From Candidatus Poribacteria bacterium (GTDB lineage: Bacteria > Poribacteria > WGA-4E > WGA-3G), in assembly GCA_965242965.1 (NCBI GenBank), contig OZ251518.1, positions 32,001-96,000 of the forward strand: a stretch of 64,000 bases of DNA, read 5' to 3'. How positions within the stretch are numbered: position 1 is the first letter of the stretch; the number at the start of each line of letters is the position of its first letter. Positions 3,190-60,230 of the stretch are shown here, piece by piece. The notes below the pieces were generated by a model. That model did no database searches, was not told the origin of the DNA, and saw only the letters and a list, made by a program, of their open reading frames with translations. The translations under genes and the position numbers were made by a program.

Positions 3190-3409
3190 CTCCAACCAGA
3201 AGGCATCGGGCCCACCTCTGTAGTTCGGGATCGCCCGATCCCGAACGGGTCAAGATCAGGCGATTTTGACCTATAGGGGGCATGCGGTCTGACACCAAAA
3301 CGCATGGCGAGGGACAGGTTTTCCCACCGCCCTACGTGAAGGGGCGGCGTTTTTTTCCCGTAGCGCGGGGCCTGTCACCGCAACGTTGAGCGATTTATGA
3401 AACACCCAC
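3190..3409. mobile_element. ~230-bp composite repeat element, right TIR retained
   Basis: Same internal module order as 10640-10837, 41580-41786 and 60030-60230; ends TTATGAAACACCCAC. Confidence 0.7.
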
Positions 3410-5333: not shown

Positions 5334-5681
5334 GAGGATGTTTCATAAATCCCCGTAGGAGAGACCTCCTGGTCTCGATGCAATAGGACAGCGCGCCTAT
5401 CGGGGTCGCGGCGGCAGAAAGCCCCCCCCTTCATCGTAGGGCGAGGGCCTGTCCCTCGCCAGTGCTCGCGCAATCCAACGCGCGCGGGGGACAGGCCCCC
5501 GCGCTACGACGAAAAAAACGTCTCTTAGGTCCTAAAGGACCTAAAACGCCCCTCTTGCCGATGGCCAACGCGGGGGACAGGCCCCCGCGCTACGGGAATA
5601 TCGAGACCCGGAGGTCTCTCCTACCGGAAATCGAGCCCCGAGGTCTCTCCTACCGAACGCATCGAAATATGAAACACCCTC
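5334..5681. mobile_element. MITE-like element with TIRs and 9-bp TSD
   Basis: GAGGATGTTTCATA...TATGAAACACCCTC, flanked by ACGTTAACT at 5325-5333 and 5682-5690. Confidence 0.88.
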
Positions 5682-10515: not shown

Positions 10516-10837
10516 GAGTGTGTTTCATAAATCCGTTGGAGTGCCCTCCCGATCTCAATGCACGCGATGTTCCTTGTAGGCGCGCCCTCCTGGTCTCAAT
10601 GTGGTTCGTATCGGGACAAGGATGTCCCTCCTACCGGAAGGCATCAGGCCCACCTCTGTAGTTCGGGAGTGCCCGCTCCCGAACAGATCAGGAGCAGGTG
10701 CTCCTGCCCTACAGGGGTGACGCGCTCTGACAGCAAAACGGATGGCGATGGACAGGCCCTCGCCTTACGTGAAGGGGGGGGCACCGTAGCGCGGGGGCCT
10801 GTCCCCCGCGATGCTGAGCGATTTATGAAACTCCCTC
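10516..10837. mobile_element. MITE-like element with TIRs and 9-bp TSD
   Basis: GAGTGTGTTTCATAAATC...GATTTATGAAACTCCCTC, flanked by AATTTTAGC at 10507-10515 and 10838-10846. Confidence 0.88.
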
Positions 10838-18346: not shown

Positions 18347-18942
18347 GAGGGGGTTTCATATTTCGCTGCACACCCGTAGGAGAGACCTCCCGGTCTCGAT
18401 GGCACCTCGGTAGGAGAGCCTTCCTGGTCTCGATGCGTTCGGGGGGTTCCCGTAGGGCGAGGGCCTGTCCCTCGCCGTGCTTGATTGCCCTTTTCACCGT
18501 AGGGCGAGGGCCTGTCCCTCGCCATGCGCCGGTCGTGACAGCAAACGTCCGTGGTCTCTGGGTTGCGGGTGTTTTTCGCATAGGTTGAGAGATCGCGGGG
18601 GACAGGTAATTTGTCTCGTTTCTGTAGGTCAAGATCGCCTGATCTTGACCCGTTCGGGAGCAGGTGCTCCCGAACTACAGTCACTGGGGCACGCGGGCGA
18701 TCTCGGGGGAAACCCGCTCGCATGCACGTGTGGCATGCGAGGGCCCCCGCGCTACGGTAGGAAAGCTGATTTTCCTCGCCAAGATGTTCCTAATCTTGGA
18801 AATCTTGGAAATCTTGGAAATCCTGCTTCAGACTATTAAGATTGCGGGGGCCTGTCCCCCGCGCTACGAACTGCGGACGTTTGAGGCATCGAGACCGGGA
18901 GGTCTCTCCTACGGGGAAGGCATTGATATATGAAACCCTCTC
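18347..18942. mobile_element. MITE-like element with TIRs and ~13-bp TSD
   Basis: GAGGGGGTTTCATAT...ATATGAAACCCTCTC, flanked by AATTTATTATTA(G/T). Confidence 0.8.
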
Positions 18943-20702: not shown

Positions 20703-22178
20703 TTAATCCAACGGAAAGATTGGCCTCCGAATCTCCTGATAGGTAAAGTGCTGCGGATTCACGGCTGTCAGCCCAGGCGTATCCACCTCAATAATCTCGC
20801 CTGCGATGGGTTCGTAGGCGGCGCGGTAGGCAATGGCTGCTTTGACGACAATTATCTGCATCGCCTGCGGCTGAATGCCGAGACTGAGCAGTTGCTGAAG
20901 GCTAAACGGCGTTTGTCGTCTGCTTGTTAATATCACTAGTGAGCGATGCGGCGCGGCTAATTCAACTACCGCTGTCAAGCCTTGATTGTGATATTTCTGT
21001 CCGCCGTGCCGAGGTTCTGTCTCAACAAAATGCCCATCGTGGATGAGCCGGACGCGGCCCCGAATAGGCACCGGTTCACCATGTAGCGTGTCTGTCTTGC
21101 CACCGACGTTGAGCGCAACTTCTTCGCCGACCCCGGTCTGTAGACATGTCTGCACGCTTTCAACATCGCAGAGAACAACAACAAACCCGAATGCCCTCTG
21201 TTTCAGCAACTCGGCGAGAATAATGGTGCTATCCCCCGGTGAGCCGCCGCCGATGTTATCACCCATTTCGACGAGGATGACAGGATGCTTTTCGGCGTTG
21301 ATGGCTTGTCGGACAGCCGTTGCTGCATCGGGTAAATCAAGCGTGAGTTGCCCGTGCACATTCCACAACATCTCCGATAACCTATCTGCTTCTTGGCGTG
21401 CGAGTTGGAGGTGCTCATCCGTAACGACGACAAAGGCGGGACCTGCTTCATACACATCGGCGTAGGGATACCCCGCGGCGACGTTCGCGACGAGGACATC
21501 GTCCCGCGCTTCTAATTCGGCCGCGGCGTTCAGAATGGAACGCATCGGTTCGGCACTGGTGTTTTGATACCGGATATTGAGGAGCATCGACGGTTTTGAC
21601 AGTGACTGCGTCGGCGTGATGCCCTCGGAGAGGATACGATGCATTAGGGCAAACGCCTGAAGCCCGCGTTGCCGCTGATCGATGTGCGGATTTGTTTTGT
21701 AAATCACCAATGCTGTGGAGAGGTTTACCATTTGTTCGGAAACGTTGGCGTGATGGTCCAACGTGACAACGATGGGAAATTCTGCGGGGAAAATAGCGCG
21801 TAGCCGGCGTAATAACTCGCCATCGCCATCGGGATAACTCTCCACCACCATTGCTCCGTGCAGCGCGAGGAGTAATCCTTCATAAGTCGGCGCAGAAACC
21901 TTGAGACGTTGGATGAGCATATCGGTAAGCCGGTCGAACGCGGCATCGGTGACGCGCCCTGCAGGGGTGGCGGAAGCCATGAGTGTGGGATAGAGGGTGT
22001 ATTCGTGCTGCTCTGCACTTTCAATAGAGCCAATAAAGCCGCCCATCTCATGGTGCGTATCTGCCCAGGCGTTGATTATCTCATCGTCAACCGAGGTGTG
22101 AAACGCGTCAAAATCGGTAGGCGTATCGCTAAACGTGTTGGATTCGTGCATGATGCCGCCGATGGCAACTGTTTTCAT
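20703..22178 (-). CDS. M81 family metallopeptidase (MlrC-like)
   Basis: HESNTF, LHGAM, LDHHAN, Y.TNPH.D and DN.GGG..GD motifs. Confidence 0.92.
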   Translation of the reverse strand: MKTVAIGGIMHESNTFSDTPTDFDAFHTSVDDEIINAWADTHHEMGGFIGSIESAEQHEYTLYPTLMASATPAGRVTDAAFDRLTDMLIQRLKVSAPTYEGLLLALHGAMVVESYPDGDGELLRRLRAIFPAEFPIVVTLDHHANVSEQMVNLSTALVIYKTNPHIDQRQRGLQAFALMHRILSEGITPTQSLSKPSMLLNIRYQNTSAEPMRSILNAAAELEARDDVLVANVAAGYPYADVYEAGPAFVVVTDEHLQLARQEADRLSEMLWNVHGQLTLDLPDAATAVRQAINAEKHPVILVEMGDNIGGGSPGDSTIILAELLKQRAFGFVVVLCDVESVQTCLQTGVGEEVALNVGGKTDTLHGEPVPIRGRVRLIHDGHFVETEPRHGGQKYHNQGLTAVVELAAPHRSLVILTSRRQTPFSLQQLLSLGIQPQAMQIIVVKAAIAYRAAYEPIAGEIIEVDTPGLTAVNPQHFTYQEIRRPIFPLD

Positions 22179-22263
22179 AAGGTTCTCCGAATCCGGGTAG
22201 GCGCGCTTTCACTTTTCACAAAGTGGGGCATCTACCGAGAAATTACAATCTCAAAAAAAGTTC

Positions 22264-22293
22264 TTGACATATCTGTGACAAATATGGTATCAT
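22264..22293 (+). promoter_or_regulatory. sigma70 promoter just left of the 2.9-kb element
   Basis: TTGACA-18 bp-TATCAT. Confidence 0.65.
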
Positions 22294-22786
22294 ATTTTCA
22301 TAATTTAAGTGAGGGTGTTTCATAACTCGCTCAACGTCGCGGGGGACAGACCCCCGCGCTACGAAAAAAAACGTCTCTTAGGTCCGTAGGACCTGAATGT
22401 CTATAGCGCGTCGGTCTGCAAAGAGCCCTAAGGTCCTTTAGGTCCTTAATAGCCTTTGAGATGCCGCGTGTTTTTTATTAAGGACCTAAAGGACCTTGAA
22501 AAGGGGCCGTCACGTTTTTCTATAGACATGTAGGTCCTAAAGGACCTAAGAGGCTCTCTTGTCGACAGGCTTAGCGAGGGACAGGCCCTCGCGCTACGGT
22601 GTCAGCGGCATTTATTTCTCGCAACGCTCGCGGGGGACAGGTCTGTTCTCTCCCTTGCGCTACGGTGAAAAAACGGCTTCCCTTCATCGTAGGGCGAGGG
22701 ACAGGCCCTCGCGCTACGGTGTCAGCGGCATTTATTTCTCGAAACGATCGCAAAGAAAAATCCCCAAAAATCCACAAAAATAAAAA

Positions 22787-22815
22787 TTGACATTTTCCCA
22801 CATTTATGATACAAT
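22787..22815 (+). promoter_or_regulatory. sigma70 promoter of the ankyrin cargo gene
   Basis: TTGACA-17 bp-TACAAT, extended TG, A-tracts upstream. Confidence 0.78.
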
Positions 22816-22929
22816 TAAAACATAATGCTGAATAGGCTGCGCGCGACACAAACGCGCAACCACAAACCCTAACCGCACGTTACCCGAAAACCGGGCATCG
22901 CGCAACGAGAACGCATAGGAAAAACGACT

Positions 22930-24696
22930 ATGATAACACGAAACAACCTCCGAAAACTCGCCCGCGAAACTGGCGCATTCCTCGCGCTCTGGATCGCTAT
23001 TATCGGCGGCCTCATCCTCTTCAAAGCCTACAAACAGGCAGAAGGATTTATCACCGTCGCACAGAGCGATTATAAACGGTTTGTCAACGGCGAAAATGTC
23101 CTCATCAAACGCGTCCACGAAGAACATTGGGACATATTCTACCAATTCTACGCGGACTGCCCCGACAGCCGCAAAACCGAAGAGAACTATCGGACTCTCC
23201 GCGAAAAACTCGAAGAAGGAATCAGGATTTGGCTAGCACCGCTACGGGAAATCACCGACAGACCTATTGTCGATAAGTTTGTTTTCCATAAAAGCAAAGA
23301 AACCAATCATCTCCTGACTGAAAGTGGTCTGCAAGTTGAATATGAGATTTACGCAGTCTTCTCATGTAAGCAAGGGCGGTCATCAGCAGATAGACAAAAC
23401 AGAGGTGTAGCTATGAGGGAGAAGACAAACGGCAAAAAATCTCCGGTGTTTGGCAACCTTCCCTACAGTGACATTACACTTCTGCACGAGCTGGGTCATG
23501 CTTTTGACCTAGCCGATACCTACGTTGACAATCCAAGCTTTTCTCCTCCCAATGCCGGCACTTATTTCAGAACGATAGGTAACCAACCGAAATCCGTGAT
23601 GAGCGGATCTTATTGCAGTCGGCAGGGAGGGCTTTGTCTGGACGATAAGCGCGCCATCCAGTGGCTCTACCGTTACCATTGGGAAGGACTCGACCCGACG
23701 GATTGCCCCCCTGAATTCGTTTACGAGGAACTGACTTGGCGGGGACTCACAGTTGGGGGATGCGTCTATCGCCAGCCGCTGATAATCGAACTCCGACAAA
23801 AGCACCTAGACAGGGCGAAGAAACTGCTTGAGAACGCCAAAAACCTCAAAATCAACGATCAGGATGAGCATGGGCTAACCGCACTTCACTATGTTGCTCT
23901 GCTGCACCCTGAATTTGACATAGGGAATATTCGTCTTACTTTATTTGCAGTCCTCAAACACCCCGATGTTGACATCAATATCACCAATAAATGGGGTAAT
24001 ACTCCTCTACATACAGCGGCATGGTTAGGAAACCTTGGTATGGTTTCTAGTCTGCTGTTTGTGAACACCGAACGTATCCGAGAGGGGATTATGCTAAACG
24101 CTAAAAACGATTACGGCGTAACTGCGTTACACTATGCAGCTAAGTTAGACAGGAAAATATGTGTTGAGGTTCTACTGATGCGTACGGACATCGACCTCAA
24201 CATCAAAGAATCTCGTTTTGGCAACACCCCTCTCCACGAAGCCGTCAAGAACGGACGGACCGAGGTCGTCACAATGTTGCTCGCGCATCAGGACATCAAC
24301 CCCAATCTCCGCAATGCAGCCGGTTTCACACCGTTGCAGCTAGCCATGCAGGGAGGCGCGGTATCAGACGCAGACAGTGATGCCGGTTTCCAAGCGGATT
24401 ACCCAGAATTCTGGTCTTCGTTATCGGAGGAAGATAAGCAGCACATGAGCCCGCGTCTCTCTCCTGCAGCGTTGCAGCAGGCACACGCCGAGATCGCCGC
24501 ATTGCTCCGCGCGCATCCCGGAATTATCCTCCCCGATGCCTCGGATGTCAACGGTGATGGTATCGTCAACATCTTGGATCTCGTGAAAGTCTCCAATGCG
24601 TTCGGTCAGCGCGGTCAGATACCGGAAGATGTCAACGGCGATGGTGTCGTGAACGTTCAAGATTTGGTGTGGGTATCGGGTGCGTTTGGACAGTAG
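22930..24696 (+). CDS. Exported zinc metallopeptidase-like, ankyrin-repeat, dockerin-like protein
   Basis: N-terminal TM; HELGHAFDLAD plus SVM Met-turn; about 5 G.T(A/P)LH ankyrin repeats; two DVNGDG.VN..DL Ca-binding repeats. Confidence 0.85.
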   Translation: MITRNNLRKLARETGAFLALWIAIIGGLILFKAYKQAEGFITVAQSDYKRFVNGENVLIKRVHEEHWDIFYQFYADCPDSRKTEENYRTLREKLEEGIRIWLAPLREITDRPIVDKFVFHKSKETNHLLTESGLQVEYEIYAVFSCKQGRSSADRQNRGVAMREKTNGKKSPVFGNLPYSDITLLHELGHAFDLADTYVDNPSFSPPNAGTYFRTIGNQPKSVMSGSYCSRQGGLCLDDKRAIQWLYRYHWEGLDPTDCPPEFVYEELTWRGLTVGGCVYRQPLIIELRQKHLDRAKKLLENAKNLKINDQDEHGLTALHYVALLHPEFDIGNIRLTLFAVLKHPDVDINITNKWGNTPLHTAAWLGNLGMVSSLLFVNTERIREGIMLNAKNDYGVTALHYAAKLDRKICVEVLLMRTDIDLNIKESRFGNTPLHEAVKNGRTEVVTMLLAHQDINPNLRNAAGFTPLQLAMQGGAVSDADSDAGFQADYPEFWSSLSEEDKQHMSPRLSPAALQQAHAEIAALLRAHPGIILPDASDVNGDGIVNILDLVKVSNAFGQRGQIPEDVNGDGVVNVQDLVWVSGAFGQ

Positions 24697-25246
24697 GTCT
24701 CCGTAGGTCGACGCTCGCGGGGGACAGGCCCCCGCGCTACGGTGAAGCGAGACCGTAGTTCGGGAGCGCCTGCTCCCGAACGGATCGACGGTAAAAAAAA
24801 CGGCCCGGGTTACCGTAGGGCTTGGGCCCTCGGATGCCACACGCGCATGCGAGCGGGTTCCCCTCGCCATGCTGCGACCTATAAAAGACCGTAGTTCGGG
24901 AGCGCCTGCTCCCGAACGGGTCAAGAGCAGGCGCTCTTGACCTATAGAATGGGGACCAACGATCGCGGGGGACAGGCCCCCGCGCTACGGTGTCAGCGGC
25001 ATTTCTCGCAACGATCGCGGGGGACAGGCTCTTTTAGGTCTGTAAGACCTTAATGTCTATAGAAAAACGTGCTTCACCCTATCAAGGTCCTTTAGGTCCT
25101 TAATAAGGTTTAGCGTGTTGCATCGAGACCGGGAGGTCTCTCCTACCAGGGAAACGGAATCGTTCGGGGTATCACGAAACCGTTTTTACAAAACGACTTA
25201 TGAAACACCCTCATTTAAGTCTGTAAAAAATATGTAGACTGAAACT

Positions 25247-25858
25247 ATGGTTTGTAACGGGAAAAGCCAGATTGAACATGCCCTTGAAATCGCTGCGGAA
25301 GCGCATCAGGGACAATACCGGAAGGGCACCAACACGCCTTACATTTCGCATCCGTATGCTGTCGGGTTGCTGTTAATGGAAGCTGGCTGCACCGAGGCGG
25401 TGATTATCGCCGGCATCCTGCACGATACCGTCGAAGATACGCCGCTGACGTTAGATTTCATTCGGGATGAGTTTGGCGAACAGGTTGCGGCTATCGTTGC
25501 GGGCTGTTCTGAAAATAAAAGTTTGCGGTGGCGCGCCCGGAAAACGGAACGCATCGAAGCGTTGAAAACCGCTAGCATGGAGGTGTGTCTCGTTACGTGC
25601 GCGGACAAACTCCACAACCTGCGCACTATCATCTCAGAATACGAGCAGATTGGCGATACCGTGTGGGAACGGTTCCACGGCGAAGCGGCAGACCAGGCGT
25701 GGTATTATCGCAGCATGATGCACAGTTTGCAAGTAAAAAGTGGACAAAAACAGGGAGAATGTGATAAACTAGTTGACAGCGTTGTGAATCGGCAATTTGA
25801 TTCTATCTTCCAGCAGCTGCAGCGCGCTGTAGCCTATCTATTTCAGGGAGAAAACTAA
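25247..25858 (+). CDS. HD-domain protein (Mesh1/SpoT hydrolase-like)
   Basis: H.GQ.RK...PYI.HP, LHDTVEDT and ADKLHNL motifs. Confidence 0.88.
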   Translation: MVCNGKSQIEHALEIAAEAHQGQYRKGTNTPYISHPYAVGLLLMEAGCTEAVIIAGILHDTVEDTPLTLDFIRDEFGEQVAAIVAGCSENKSLRWRARKTERIEALKTASMEVCLVTCADKLHNLRTIISEYEQIGDTVWERFHGEAADQAWYYRSMMHSLQVKSGQKQGECDKLVDSVVNRQFDSIFQQLQRAVAYLFQGEN

Positions 25859-41520: not shown

Positions 41521-41786
41521 GAGGGTGTTTCATAACTCCGTTTCGGTAGTTATCCCGCCTTGGAGGGCGAGCGAATACCAGAAGGCATCGGGCCCACCTC
41601 TGTAGTTCGGGAGCGCCTGCTCCCGAACAGGTCAAGATCAGGCGATCTTGACCTACAGGGGTGATGCGGTCTGCCAGCCAAACCATGGCGAGGGCCTGTC
41701 CCTCGCCCTACGTGAAGCGGAGGCGTTTTTTTCACCGGCGCGCGATGCCTGTCACCGCGACGTTGAGCGAGTTATGAAACACCCTC
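41521..41786. mobile_element. MITE-like element with perfect 18-bp TIR
   Basis: GAGGGTGTTTCATAACTC/GAGTTATGAAACACCCTC; flanks GGGAAATTT vs GGGCGATTT (decayed 9-bp TSD). Confidence 0.82.
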
Positions 41787-58058: not shown

Positions 58059-58316
58059 GAGGGTGTTTCATAAATCGCTCAACGTCGCGGGGGAAACCCG
58101 CTCGGATGCGCATGTGGCATCCGAGGGCCCCGCGCTACGGTGAAAAAAACGTCTCCCCATCACGTAGGGCGGGGGCCTGTCCCCCGCCATCGCTCGCGCG
58201 CCAGGCCCTGTAAGTCAGGATCGCCCGATCCTGACCCGTTCGGGAGCGGGTGCTCCCGAACTACAGAACGGGGCCTGATGCGCCCCCCAAGGGGGGTAAA
58301 TTTATGAAACCCCCTC
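58059..58316. mobile_element. MITE-like element with TIRs and decayed 13-bp TSD
   Basis: GAGGGTGTTTCATAAAT...ATTTATGAAACCCCCTC; flanks ACTTGGTATTATT vs ATTTAGTATTATT. Confidence 0.78.
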
Positions 58317-59913: not shown

Positions 59914-60230
59914 TAAGCGTTTCTCGGTATTTATGAATACCGCGCCTTCTTGGTAGGAGAGACCTCCTGGTCTCGATGCTGCCAGACGTTAGGTGCTCGC
60001 AAACTCGAGTGGTGGGCATCTCCTACCGGCAGACATCGGCCCCCTGTAGTTCGGGATCGCCTGATCCCGAACGGTTCAGGATCAGGCGATCCTGAACTAC
60101 AAGGGGGATGCGCTTTGACAGCAAGACGCATGGCGAGGGACAGGCCCTCGCCCTACGTGAAGGGGCGGCGTTTTTTCATCGTAGCGCGGGGCATGTCCCC
60201 GCGCCGTTGAGCCATTTATGAAACACGCTC
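59902..60230. mobile_element. MITE-like element; degenerate left TIR overlaps the GNAT stop
   Basis: GAAGGCGTTTAATAA...TTATGAAACACGCTC; internal modules as in 41521-41786. Confidence 0.68.

Follow-up and report, generated by a model that had tools for sequence, protein, structure and literature searches.

The locus considered here lies in a window of 64,000 nucleotides of a poribacterial genome (G000:C1:32001-96000; 5.70 Mb in two contigs, 94.7% complete), in which the genes for an M81-family peptidase and an HD-domain protein are separated by an element of 2,902 bp (22311-25212). The element has perfect 15-bp terminal inverted repeats (TIRs) of sequence GAGGGTGTTTCATAA, matching at 15/15 positions on each side, it is flanked by two copies of an 8-bp target-site duplication (TSD), and its sole substantial gene (22930-24696), here called the cargo gene, encodes a protein with a metzincin-like domain, ankyrin repeats, and a dockerin. 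The analysis presented below suggests that the element is probably a non-autonomous mobile insertion cassette that derives from a miniature inverted-repeat transposable element (MITE) and was moved as a unit. The positions of the features are collected in Table 1.

Inside the TIRs, a nearly unique gene is embedded in repetitive extragenic palindromic (REP) sequence: blastn against the genome gives hundreds of copies for 22311-22760 and 24700-25212, and one other copy for 22761-24700. The 'CTCGCTC...' subterminal type that follows the left TIR is found on 295 of the 989 TIR ends of the genome. The left REP array contains a palindromic 'AGGTCC' module (~22375-22570) and a 58-nt repeat that occurs twice (22574-22631 and 22694-22751). 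To the right of the gene, REP-type sequence fills 24697-25197 overall, the last part of which, 25030-25197, contains half of the 'AGGTCC' module and an end of the 'CTCGTTGT' type. The promoter-like site of the cargo gene lies inside the homology to the orthologue in G001, a genome of the same genus; this homology starts at 22757, and the region is also kept in the paralog within G000 (91% over the promoter plus the 5' untranslated region). A preliminary description of this DNA had reported the perfect 15-bp TIRs with an 8-bp direct repeat, the REP arrays at both ends, a promoter, and an ankyrin/metallopeptidase/dockerin gene, all of which are found here, the metallopeptidase as a metzincin-like fold in a structure model. 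It had also pointed to a repeated segment on both sides of the gene, and the 20-mer GCTACGGTGTCAGCGGCATT is indeed present at 22593, 22713, and 24984.

The evidence that the 2.9 kb were inserted comes from relatives in which the site is empty, a comparison that the preliminary description had proposed. In G001 and in G002, another genome of the same genus, the M81 and HD genes adjoin each other with ~130-145 bp between them (C197:18430-19890 and C197:20035-20658 in G001, 2861035-2862498 and 2862626-2863246 in G002), without the 2.9 kb and with no TIR-less ankyrin gene in their place. In the alignment, the HD promoter TTGACA-18-TATCAT is followed by a single ATTTAAAT in G001 or ATCTAAAT in G002, and then by the HD leader. 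A public metagenome (run X7) provides a further case, in which one contig of 1,539 nt spans 21802-22298 and 25214-25697 with 4 letters between the two parts. Compared to the window, this contig has 12 other letters and one gap over 497 nt on the left (~97.4% identity) and 7 other letters over 484 nt on the right (~98.6%), and by this alignment it is the empty site of a much closer relative than G001.

As the two flanks adjoin each other around one copy of the target in G001, G002, and the X7 contig, the 2.9 kb represent one recent insertion. These alignments show that the 2,902 bp entered as one insertion with an 8-bp duplication, at a site of the form A-N-T-T-A-A-N-T that lies downstream of the HD promoter and ahead of the HD start codon. 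The insertion separates the two, such that the start codon is now 2.9 kb from the resident promoter, which is directed into the element. In a run from a different study (X4), a contig corresponding to 25157-25700 runs from inside the right end into the HD gene and represents the filled right junction, and the same run also has pieces of the cargo gene that show no differences. The best-matching metagenome runs may include the source sample and are thus not independent support. At 92% likeness, several parts of the cargo gene are without cover in runs X6 and X7, from which no conclusion was drawn.

The weight of the TSD alone is a different matter. Since the target is biased to A-N-T-T-A-A-N-T, a matching TSD is not significant genome-wide. 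Random pairs of left and right flanks are identical with p = 0.0011, and 0.07 perfect 8-bp flanks are expected among the 62 adjacent large pairs of the genome; among the 1,377 +/- end pairs that lie 1-30 kb apart, 2 have perfect 8-bp flanks vs 1.56 expected by chance. TSD statistics were therefore rejected as decisive proof, the target bias giving chance matches, and it is the empty sites in the aligned relatives that decide that the bracket is real. The same sites bear on the reading that a native gene lies by coincidence between two inward-facing, unrelated MITE ends. Such chance brackets are the common case in this genome, as 8 of the 11 large intervals that were tested are native and syntenic, and the ~1.6 perfect flank matches expected among the 1,377 pairs would provide for an occasional matching TSD. 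For the present element the reading is refuted by the absence of the whole interval in G001, G002, and the X7 contig, where the flanks are contiguous around a single target copy, and we consider it extremely improbable.

The 11 intervals, all large and TIR-bracketed, were compared with G001 and G002 for synteny. Three of them are insertions, for each of which G001 has one copy of the target, and eight hold native genes; the intervals L053, L054, L057, L058, and L061-L064, the genes of which are native and syntenic, were rejected as gene-carrying insertions. The preliminary description had asked whether other TIR pairs enclose genes, and two such pairs with empty sites in G001 are thus present in G000 in addition to the window element. 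The second cassette, of 3,920 bp, carries the gene of a 1,023-aa Type ISP-like methyltransferase/specificity protein and has internal TIR copies GACGGTGTTTCATAA at 189056 and 189251; in G001, a single AATAAATT abuts the ArgB promoter. The third, of 6,504 bp, carries the gene of a 1,482-aa lamin-tail-domain (LTD) protein and retains sequence derived from an insertion sequence (IS) next to its right end; G001 has a single AACTAAAC with contiguous flanks, and the site is without the insertion in both G001 and G002.

In all three cassettes, the insertion lies a few to tens of bases from a consensus sigma-70-like promoter that belongs to the next gene downstream (HD, ArgB, and polyprenyl synthetase, respectively). 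The AT-rich target may steer insertions to promoter regions.

A further reading is that two complete MITEs flank the gene and that their outer ends were used for transposition, in the manner of a composite transposon. The internal TIR copies of the second cassette (C1:188873-192792) are what such an arrangement would leave. The window element has no internal TIR at ≤3 mismatches, and its 8 internal matches with 4-5 mismatches are close to what chance gives (4.3 in shuffles). The composite structure was rejected for want of inner TIRs, and we judge it highly unlikely. A third possibility is that the insertion was made independently of the TIRs, by a REP-associated or other recombinase or by recombination of foreign DNA, the TIRs being bystanders. 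The extreme abundance of REPs (4,618 core hits) and the gene families that spread with them speak for it; against it, the boundaries match the TIR tips to the base and the 8-bp duplication is the same as the cognate IS makes, and both hold in three independent cassettes. We regard this possibility as unlikely. Jointly, the alternatives other than unit transposition and the capture in situ that is discussed below have only a small share of the probability.

The TIR belongs to a family that is strongly expanded in this genome. In the window, 13 sites match the TIR at ≤2 mismatches vs 0.08 expected, among them the ends of four short pairs of 252-348 bp, in line with the earlier statement that the same TIR bounds short MITEs elsewhere in the window. 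In the whole of G000 there are 989 TIR ends, which form 352 adjacent inward-facing pairs, 290 of them <1 kb and 62 ≥1 kb. The 15-mer is found 807 times at ≤1 mismatch in G000 vs 0-15 times in each of 40 other genomes, with at least one match in 24 of the 41 genomes searched; these counts document a MITE burst specific to the G000 lineage. The flanks of all ends show the biased target A-N-T-T-A-A-N-T. Both TIRs and the TSD are perfect in 17 of the 290 short MITEs, and by this figure the window cassette and the second cassette belong to the best-preserved class. About two thirds of the short pairs (192/290) have flanks with ≥2 mismatches in 8, no more alike than random pairs, and 285 of the 989 ends are unpaired; recombination between copies, indels at the tips, or age may be responsible for both.

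REP-like palindromic units with the core GCGGGGGACAGGCCCCCGCGCTACG are extremely abundant genome-wide (in the window, e.g., at 22332-22370 and 24717-24741). The count of 4,618 core hits was obtained at ≤4 mismatches in searches of both strands, such that some sites may be counted twice, and 563 of these cores (~12%) lie inside short MITEs. A variant end, GAGGGTGGTTCATAA, occurs ~280 bp from the 3' end of a gene for a 384-aa TnpB/OrfB_IS605 protein (L028:155-1599, G006:C106), and also at several contig ends in G006 and G019.

An IS with the same TIR and a DDE transposase, which the preliminary description had proposed to look for, is present in two other genomes. G022, a related Poribacteria genome, has seven identical copies of 1,107 bp with an open frame of 353 aa, a 17-bp inverted repeat that starts with the same 15-mer, and 8-bp TSDs (AGATAATT, AATTAATT). 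In G024, a 1,108-bp TIR pair (C222:77-1184) surrounds a broken DDE transposase, the N-terminal part of which as a query has matches in 7 of the 41 genomes. The ends of the window element are identical to the IS ends in both G022 and G024. The G022 transposase matches PF13612 (DDE_Tnp_1_3) with 39.1 bits (cut-off 27), and its best NCBIfam match is the IS982 family with 54.9 bits, below the cut-off of 130; a plasmid-database search with the transposase gave one weak match, with 34.5% identity over 39% of the protein. The G022 element resembles the IS982 family in its size of ~1.1 kb, its single DDE transposase, its short inverted repeats, and the DDE_Tnp_1_3 match above cut-off, and it differs in scoring under the NCBIfam IS982 cut-off (54.9 vs 130). 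The cognate IS thus appears closest to IS982, i.e., IS982-like, family membership not being established. Together, the empty sites, the matching IS, and the two further gene-carrying insertions support the earlier suggestion that the element is a gene-carrying non-autonomous cassette.

As also stated in that description, no transposase was found in the element: G000 has 0 matches to PF13612 and 0 to PF01609 genome-wide, the small overlapping open reading frames of the element not having been scanned singly. Since remnants of the cognate transposase are all that is found in G000, the MITE population and the cassette are currently orphaned, as far as the 94.7%-complete assembly shows.

The source of the cargo can be traced to a locus at 1.71 Mb, where the one other full-length copy in G000 is found (C1:1710279-1712048, L001:5280-7052; 74% protein identity). 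This paralog has REP arrays on both sides and one in-frame TGA at about codon 497, and may be a pseudogene or give a product that ends before the dockerin. An SDR gene and a UDP-glucose dehydrogenase gene flank it, as they do the G001 homologue, and because these neighbors are common to both, the paralog locus is the ancestral one. At 4-fold sites, the window copy differs from the paralog by 0.248 and from G001 by 0.393, and the paralog differs from G001 by 0.415; for the flanking housekeeping genes of G000 and G001 the divergence is 0.16-0.30. On these divergences, the window copy is an old duplicate that arose within the lineage. A truncated window-type remnant at C1:4369884-4370093 (L002:4885-5094), between a 380-aa gene and a sulfatase-like gene, has the promoter, the leader, and ~20 codons (MITRNNLRKLTRETGVVLAL), followed by a stop, and is cut off by REP units. 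Its presence implies that further window-type copies once existed.

The comparison with the paralog also divides the element into two parts. Two stretches of the window copy run collinear with the paralog locus, 22332-22600 (87%, to the flank upstream of the TIR-less paralog) and 22776-25029. What is left, 21 bp at the left end and 183 bp at the right, matches instead a subfamily of short MITEs with an A-type left end and a 'CTCGTTGT'-type right end, of which there are seven short members; in the short MITE at C1:206990-207726, it is the right 185 bp that align with 25029-25210, at 84%. Both junctions between cargo and MITE lie inside REP units, a pattern from which we infer a double crossover or gene conversion between the REPs of a MITE and the REPs flanking the gene.

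The mechanism that we consider most plausible from these data would begin with such an event, in which a MITE acquired the gene together with its promoter and REP flanks. The loaded cassette would later have moved to its present site, probably by cut-and-paste, through an IS transposase acting in trans. The cognate transposase would since have been lost from G000, and the cassette is now probably immobile. A single cut-and-paste relocation would explain at once the perfect ends, the empty X7 site, and the lack of a sibling; there is no near-identical sibling of the cargo in the genome, as cut-and-paste predicts.

The main rival is that the unit never transposed. In this case, a short MITE would have been present at ATTTAAGT, and the gene block would have been copied into it by REP-REP recombination or gene conversion. 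Recombination at the repeats had been put forward in the preliminary description as an alternative way for the gene to enter; it is the best explanation for the loading of the cargo, and entry at the present site ranks below unit transposition. Capture in situ accounts for the collinearity of the interior with a TIR-less ancestral locus, for the position of both junctions in REPs, and for the single copy of the cassette, and it agrees with REP arrays being the interiors of MITEs, which hold the 563 of 4,618 cores mentioned above. It is difficult to reconcile with the state of the ends. If the loading took place in situ from the lineage of the extant paralog, the MITE must predate 25% neutral divergence, and still not one of the 30 TIR bases or of the 8 bp of the TSD has changed, and a contig with ~98% flank identity shows the empty site. 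For a MITE resident since the duplication, our own arithmetic from the value of 0.248 gives p ~0.10 for a perfect TSD and p ~0.02 for both TIRs being perfect. Capture in situ would then require, as the donor, a third window-type copy that has since been lost. The other two cassettes repeat this pattern, with pristine TIRs and nearest paralogs that are 85% (methyltransferase) and 88% (LTD) identical, the corresponding range for the window gene being 79-86%. We therefore consider capture in situ to be rather unlikely, and relocation as a unit to be the probable course of events.

A number of observations nevertheless weigh against such relocation, and several of them are equally points in favor of capture in situ. 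All three cargo genes belong to multi-copy REP-flanked families, the copies of which are mostly without TIRs, meaning that REP-mediated duplication works in G000 without TIRs. As ~12% of the REP cores lie inside short MITEs, some duplicates would land there by chance. No TIRs at ≤3 mismatches were found beside the gene at the 1.71-Mb paralog or at the homologues in G001, G002, G004, and G005, and no second TIR-bounded copy of the cargo of any cassette was found elsewhere, so movement is not directly observed. Of the cognate transposase, G000 has two short decayed fragments beside a solo TIR (C1:2371347-2371746) and nothing else, and searches of its two contigs gave no DDE_Tnp_1_3 or DDE_Tnp_1 transposase. 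For the clock argument, rates are taken to be neutral and equal, and the extant paralog to stand for the donor lineage. Finally, run X7 also has window-type gene pieces that are 92-98% identical, which cannot be linked to the empty-site contig and may come from another strain.

The families of the other two cargo genes are unusually large for a 5.7-Mb genome. The Type ISP-like methyltransferase gene has ~22 paralogous loci in G000, six of them at 81-85% nucleotide identity including the REP flanks; these six closest paralogs give a mixed picture, with partial MITE fragments and solo right ends. For the C-terminal part of the LTD protein, there are ~30 paralogous loci.

The cargo protein of the window element consists, in this order, of an N-terminal hydrophobic segment, a metzincin-like domain (HELGHAFDLAD ... 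SVM), ankyrin repeats, and a C-terminal dockerin. The ankyrin repeats (Ank_2, 88.6 bits, cut-off 27.3, E 4e-25) and the dockerin (Dockerin_1, 29.7 bits, cut-off 22.9, E 8e-7) are clear from Pfam, which for the N-terminal domain gives no significant peptidase family (Reprolysin_5, E 0.21); a PDB sequence search with this domain gave nothing significant either. Metzincins are defined by the HExxHxxGxxH/D zinc motif, the Met-turn, and the metzincin fold. The zinc-type motif is HELGHAFDLAD in the window copy and HELGHAFGLAD in more distant homologues, and H, E, H, D, and the downstream M are invariant across 11 sequences. A model of the N-terminal domain (residues ~36-302; pLDDT 72, pTM 0.79) has catalytic domains of matrix metalloproteinases as its top Foldseek matches (E 3e-4, probability about 1, target-normalized TM 0.42-0.55), which suggests a metzincin-like fold and a predicted protease.

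The dockerin and the N-terminal hydrophobic segment suggest, from sequence features, a surface protein that is membrane-anchored or secreted. The predicted product would accordingly be a metzincin-like protease of this kind that also has ankyrin repeats and a dockerin, and the gene would be transcribed from a consensus promoter of its own. The term effector, used in the preliminary description, is not supported in the sense of an injected protein as far as profile searches indicate: the NCBIfam models for ankyrin effectors of the type IV secretion system give 18-47 bits, far below their cut-offs of 450-1400, and match on the ankyrin repeats alone. With the cargo protein as a query, a scan of genome contigs found one locus, in a G001-like Poribacteria metagenome-assembled genome, and a scan of metagenome contigs gave 30 pattern matches with no relative among them.

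Table 1. Positions of the element, its parts and neighbors, other members of the TIR family in the window, and the two further cassettes (window coordinates unless a contig is given)
Feature	Position	Strand	Basis or remark
M81-family (MlrC-like) peptidase gene, left neighbor	20703-22178	-	divergent to HD
Resident sigma-70-like HD promoter, TTGACA-18-TATCAT, TG upstream	22264-22293	+	kept in G001/G002 empty sites
Left TSD copy ATTTAAGT, 8 bp	22303-22310		exact repeat; single homologous copy in G001 is ATTTAAAT
Left TIR GAGGGTGTTTCATAA	22311-22325	+	15/15; then 'CTCGCTC...' subterminal type
Left REP array	22326-22775		blastn copies; repeats
Cargo promoter-like site, TTGACA-17-TACAAT, TG upstream	22787-22815	+	sequence pattern
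Cargo gene, 588 aa (1,767-bp open reading frame)	22930-24696	+	open reading frame, Pfam domains
Right REP array	24697-25029		collinear (79%) with paralog downstream flank, same high-scoring segment pair as 3' half of gene
MITE-derived right subterminal segment	25030-25197		without counterpart at paralog locus
Right TIR GAGGGTGTTTCATAA	25198-25212	-	15/15
Right TSD copy ATTTAAGT	25213-25220		exact repeat
HD-domain gene, downstream neighbor	25247-25858	+	same orientation as cargo gene
Four short TIR pairs (252-348 bp)	5334-5681, 10516-10837, 41521-41786, 58059-58316		same TIR family
Three solo ends	3395-3409, 18347-18361, 60216-60230		same TIR family
Second cassette, 3,920 bp	G000:C1:188873-192792 (L043:2374-6293)		perfect TIRs, TSD AATAAATT
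Third cassette, 6,504 bp	G000:C1:1621407-1627910 (L055:1508-8011)		perfect TIRs, TSD AACTAATT/AACTAAAT (one mismatch)

MITEs, by the usual definition, are small and non-coding. The element shares its TIRs, TSD, and target preference with the 290 short pairs, and its termini match one subfamily of short MITEs; at 2,902 bp and with a 1,767-bp open reading frame, it falls outside that definition and is better described as a MITE derivative than as a MITE. Pack-MULEs and other Pack-type elements are non-autonomous transposons of plants that capture host gene sequence. The present element is similar in being a non-autonomous TIR element, the interior of which has given way to host gene sequence copied from another part of the genome, and it differs in its prokaryotic host, in the transposase superfamily, and in containing a whole gene with its promoter, apparently templated by REPs.

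The closest counterparts are the mobile insertion cassettes (MICs) of bacteria, in which IS-type inverted repeats enclose passenger genes but no transposase, and which have the TSD of the cognate element (PMC3129680, PMC4337579). Xanthomonas effector genes, including those of TALEs, are carried in cassettes flanked by TnXax1 inverted repeats, and MIC231 of Bacillus cereus is cited in the same context (PMC4337579). The window element resembles MIC231 and the TnXax1 cassettes in having a passenger gene between IS or transposon inverted repeats and no transposase, in the length of its TSD, which is that made by the cognate element (8 bp here), and in its presumed mobilization in trans; its structural features are thus those of a MIC. 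It differs in its ends, which are those of an IS982-like DDE IS with a TSD of 8 bp, whereas the known MICs named above have IS231 or Tn3 ends and a TSD of 5 bp. It further differs in its base, a REP-filled MITE into which the cargo was apparently loaded via REP homology, and in its host, an uncultured sponge symbiont with no cognate transposase in its genome. The MIC as an element type is therefore already well described in these sources (PMC3129680, PMC4337579), and what is new is the lineage, the IS982-like ends, the proposed REP-mediated loading, and the types of cargo. A full-text literature search gave no paper that connects MITEs with Poribacteria or with sponge symbionts.

A characteristic feature of sponge symbionts is their possession of eukaryote-like repeat proteins. 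These have been catalogued in Poribacteria, and the movement of their genes is not addressed in the excerpted passages of that catalogue (PMC3909097). The present locus is a base-resolved example, in which a protease-ankyrin-dockerin gene is found in a cassette that lacks a transposase; close relatives have the site empty, and a sister lineage has the matching IS. We tentatively propose, as a possibility rather than as the expected outcome, that REP arrays act as ready-made homology arms, through which whole host genes with their promoters are loaded into resident MITEs and become cut-and-paste cassettes, a bacterial counterpart of Pack-type capture by which members of at least three expanded families would have been relocated, and which may be a general route in symbionts. 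Insertions beside promoters may in addition rewire the expression of neighboring genes, as here, where the HD gene is split from its promoter. If the proposal is true, sponge symbionts would have a general route to shuffle eukaryote-like and defense genes next to host promoters.

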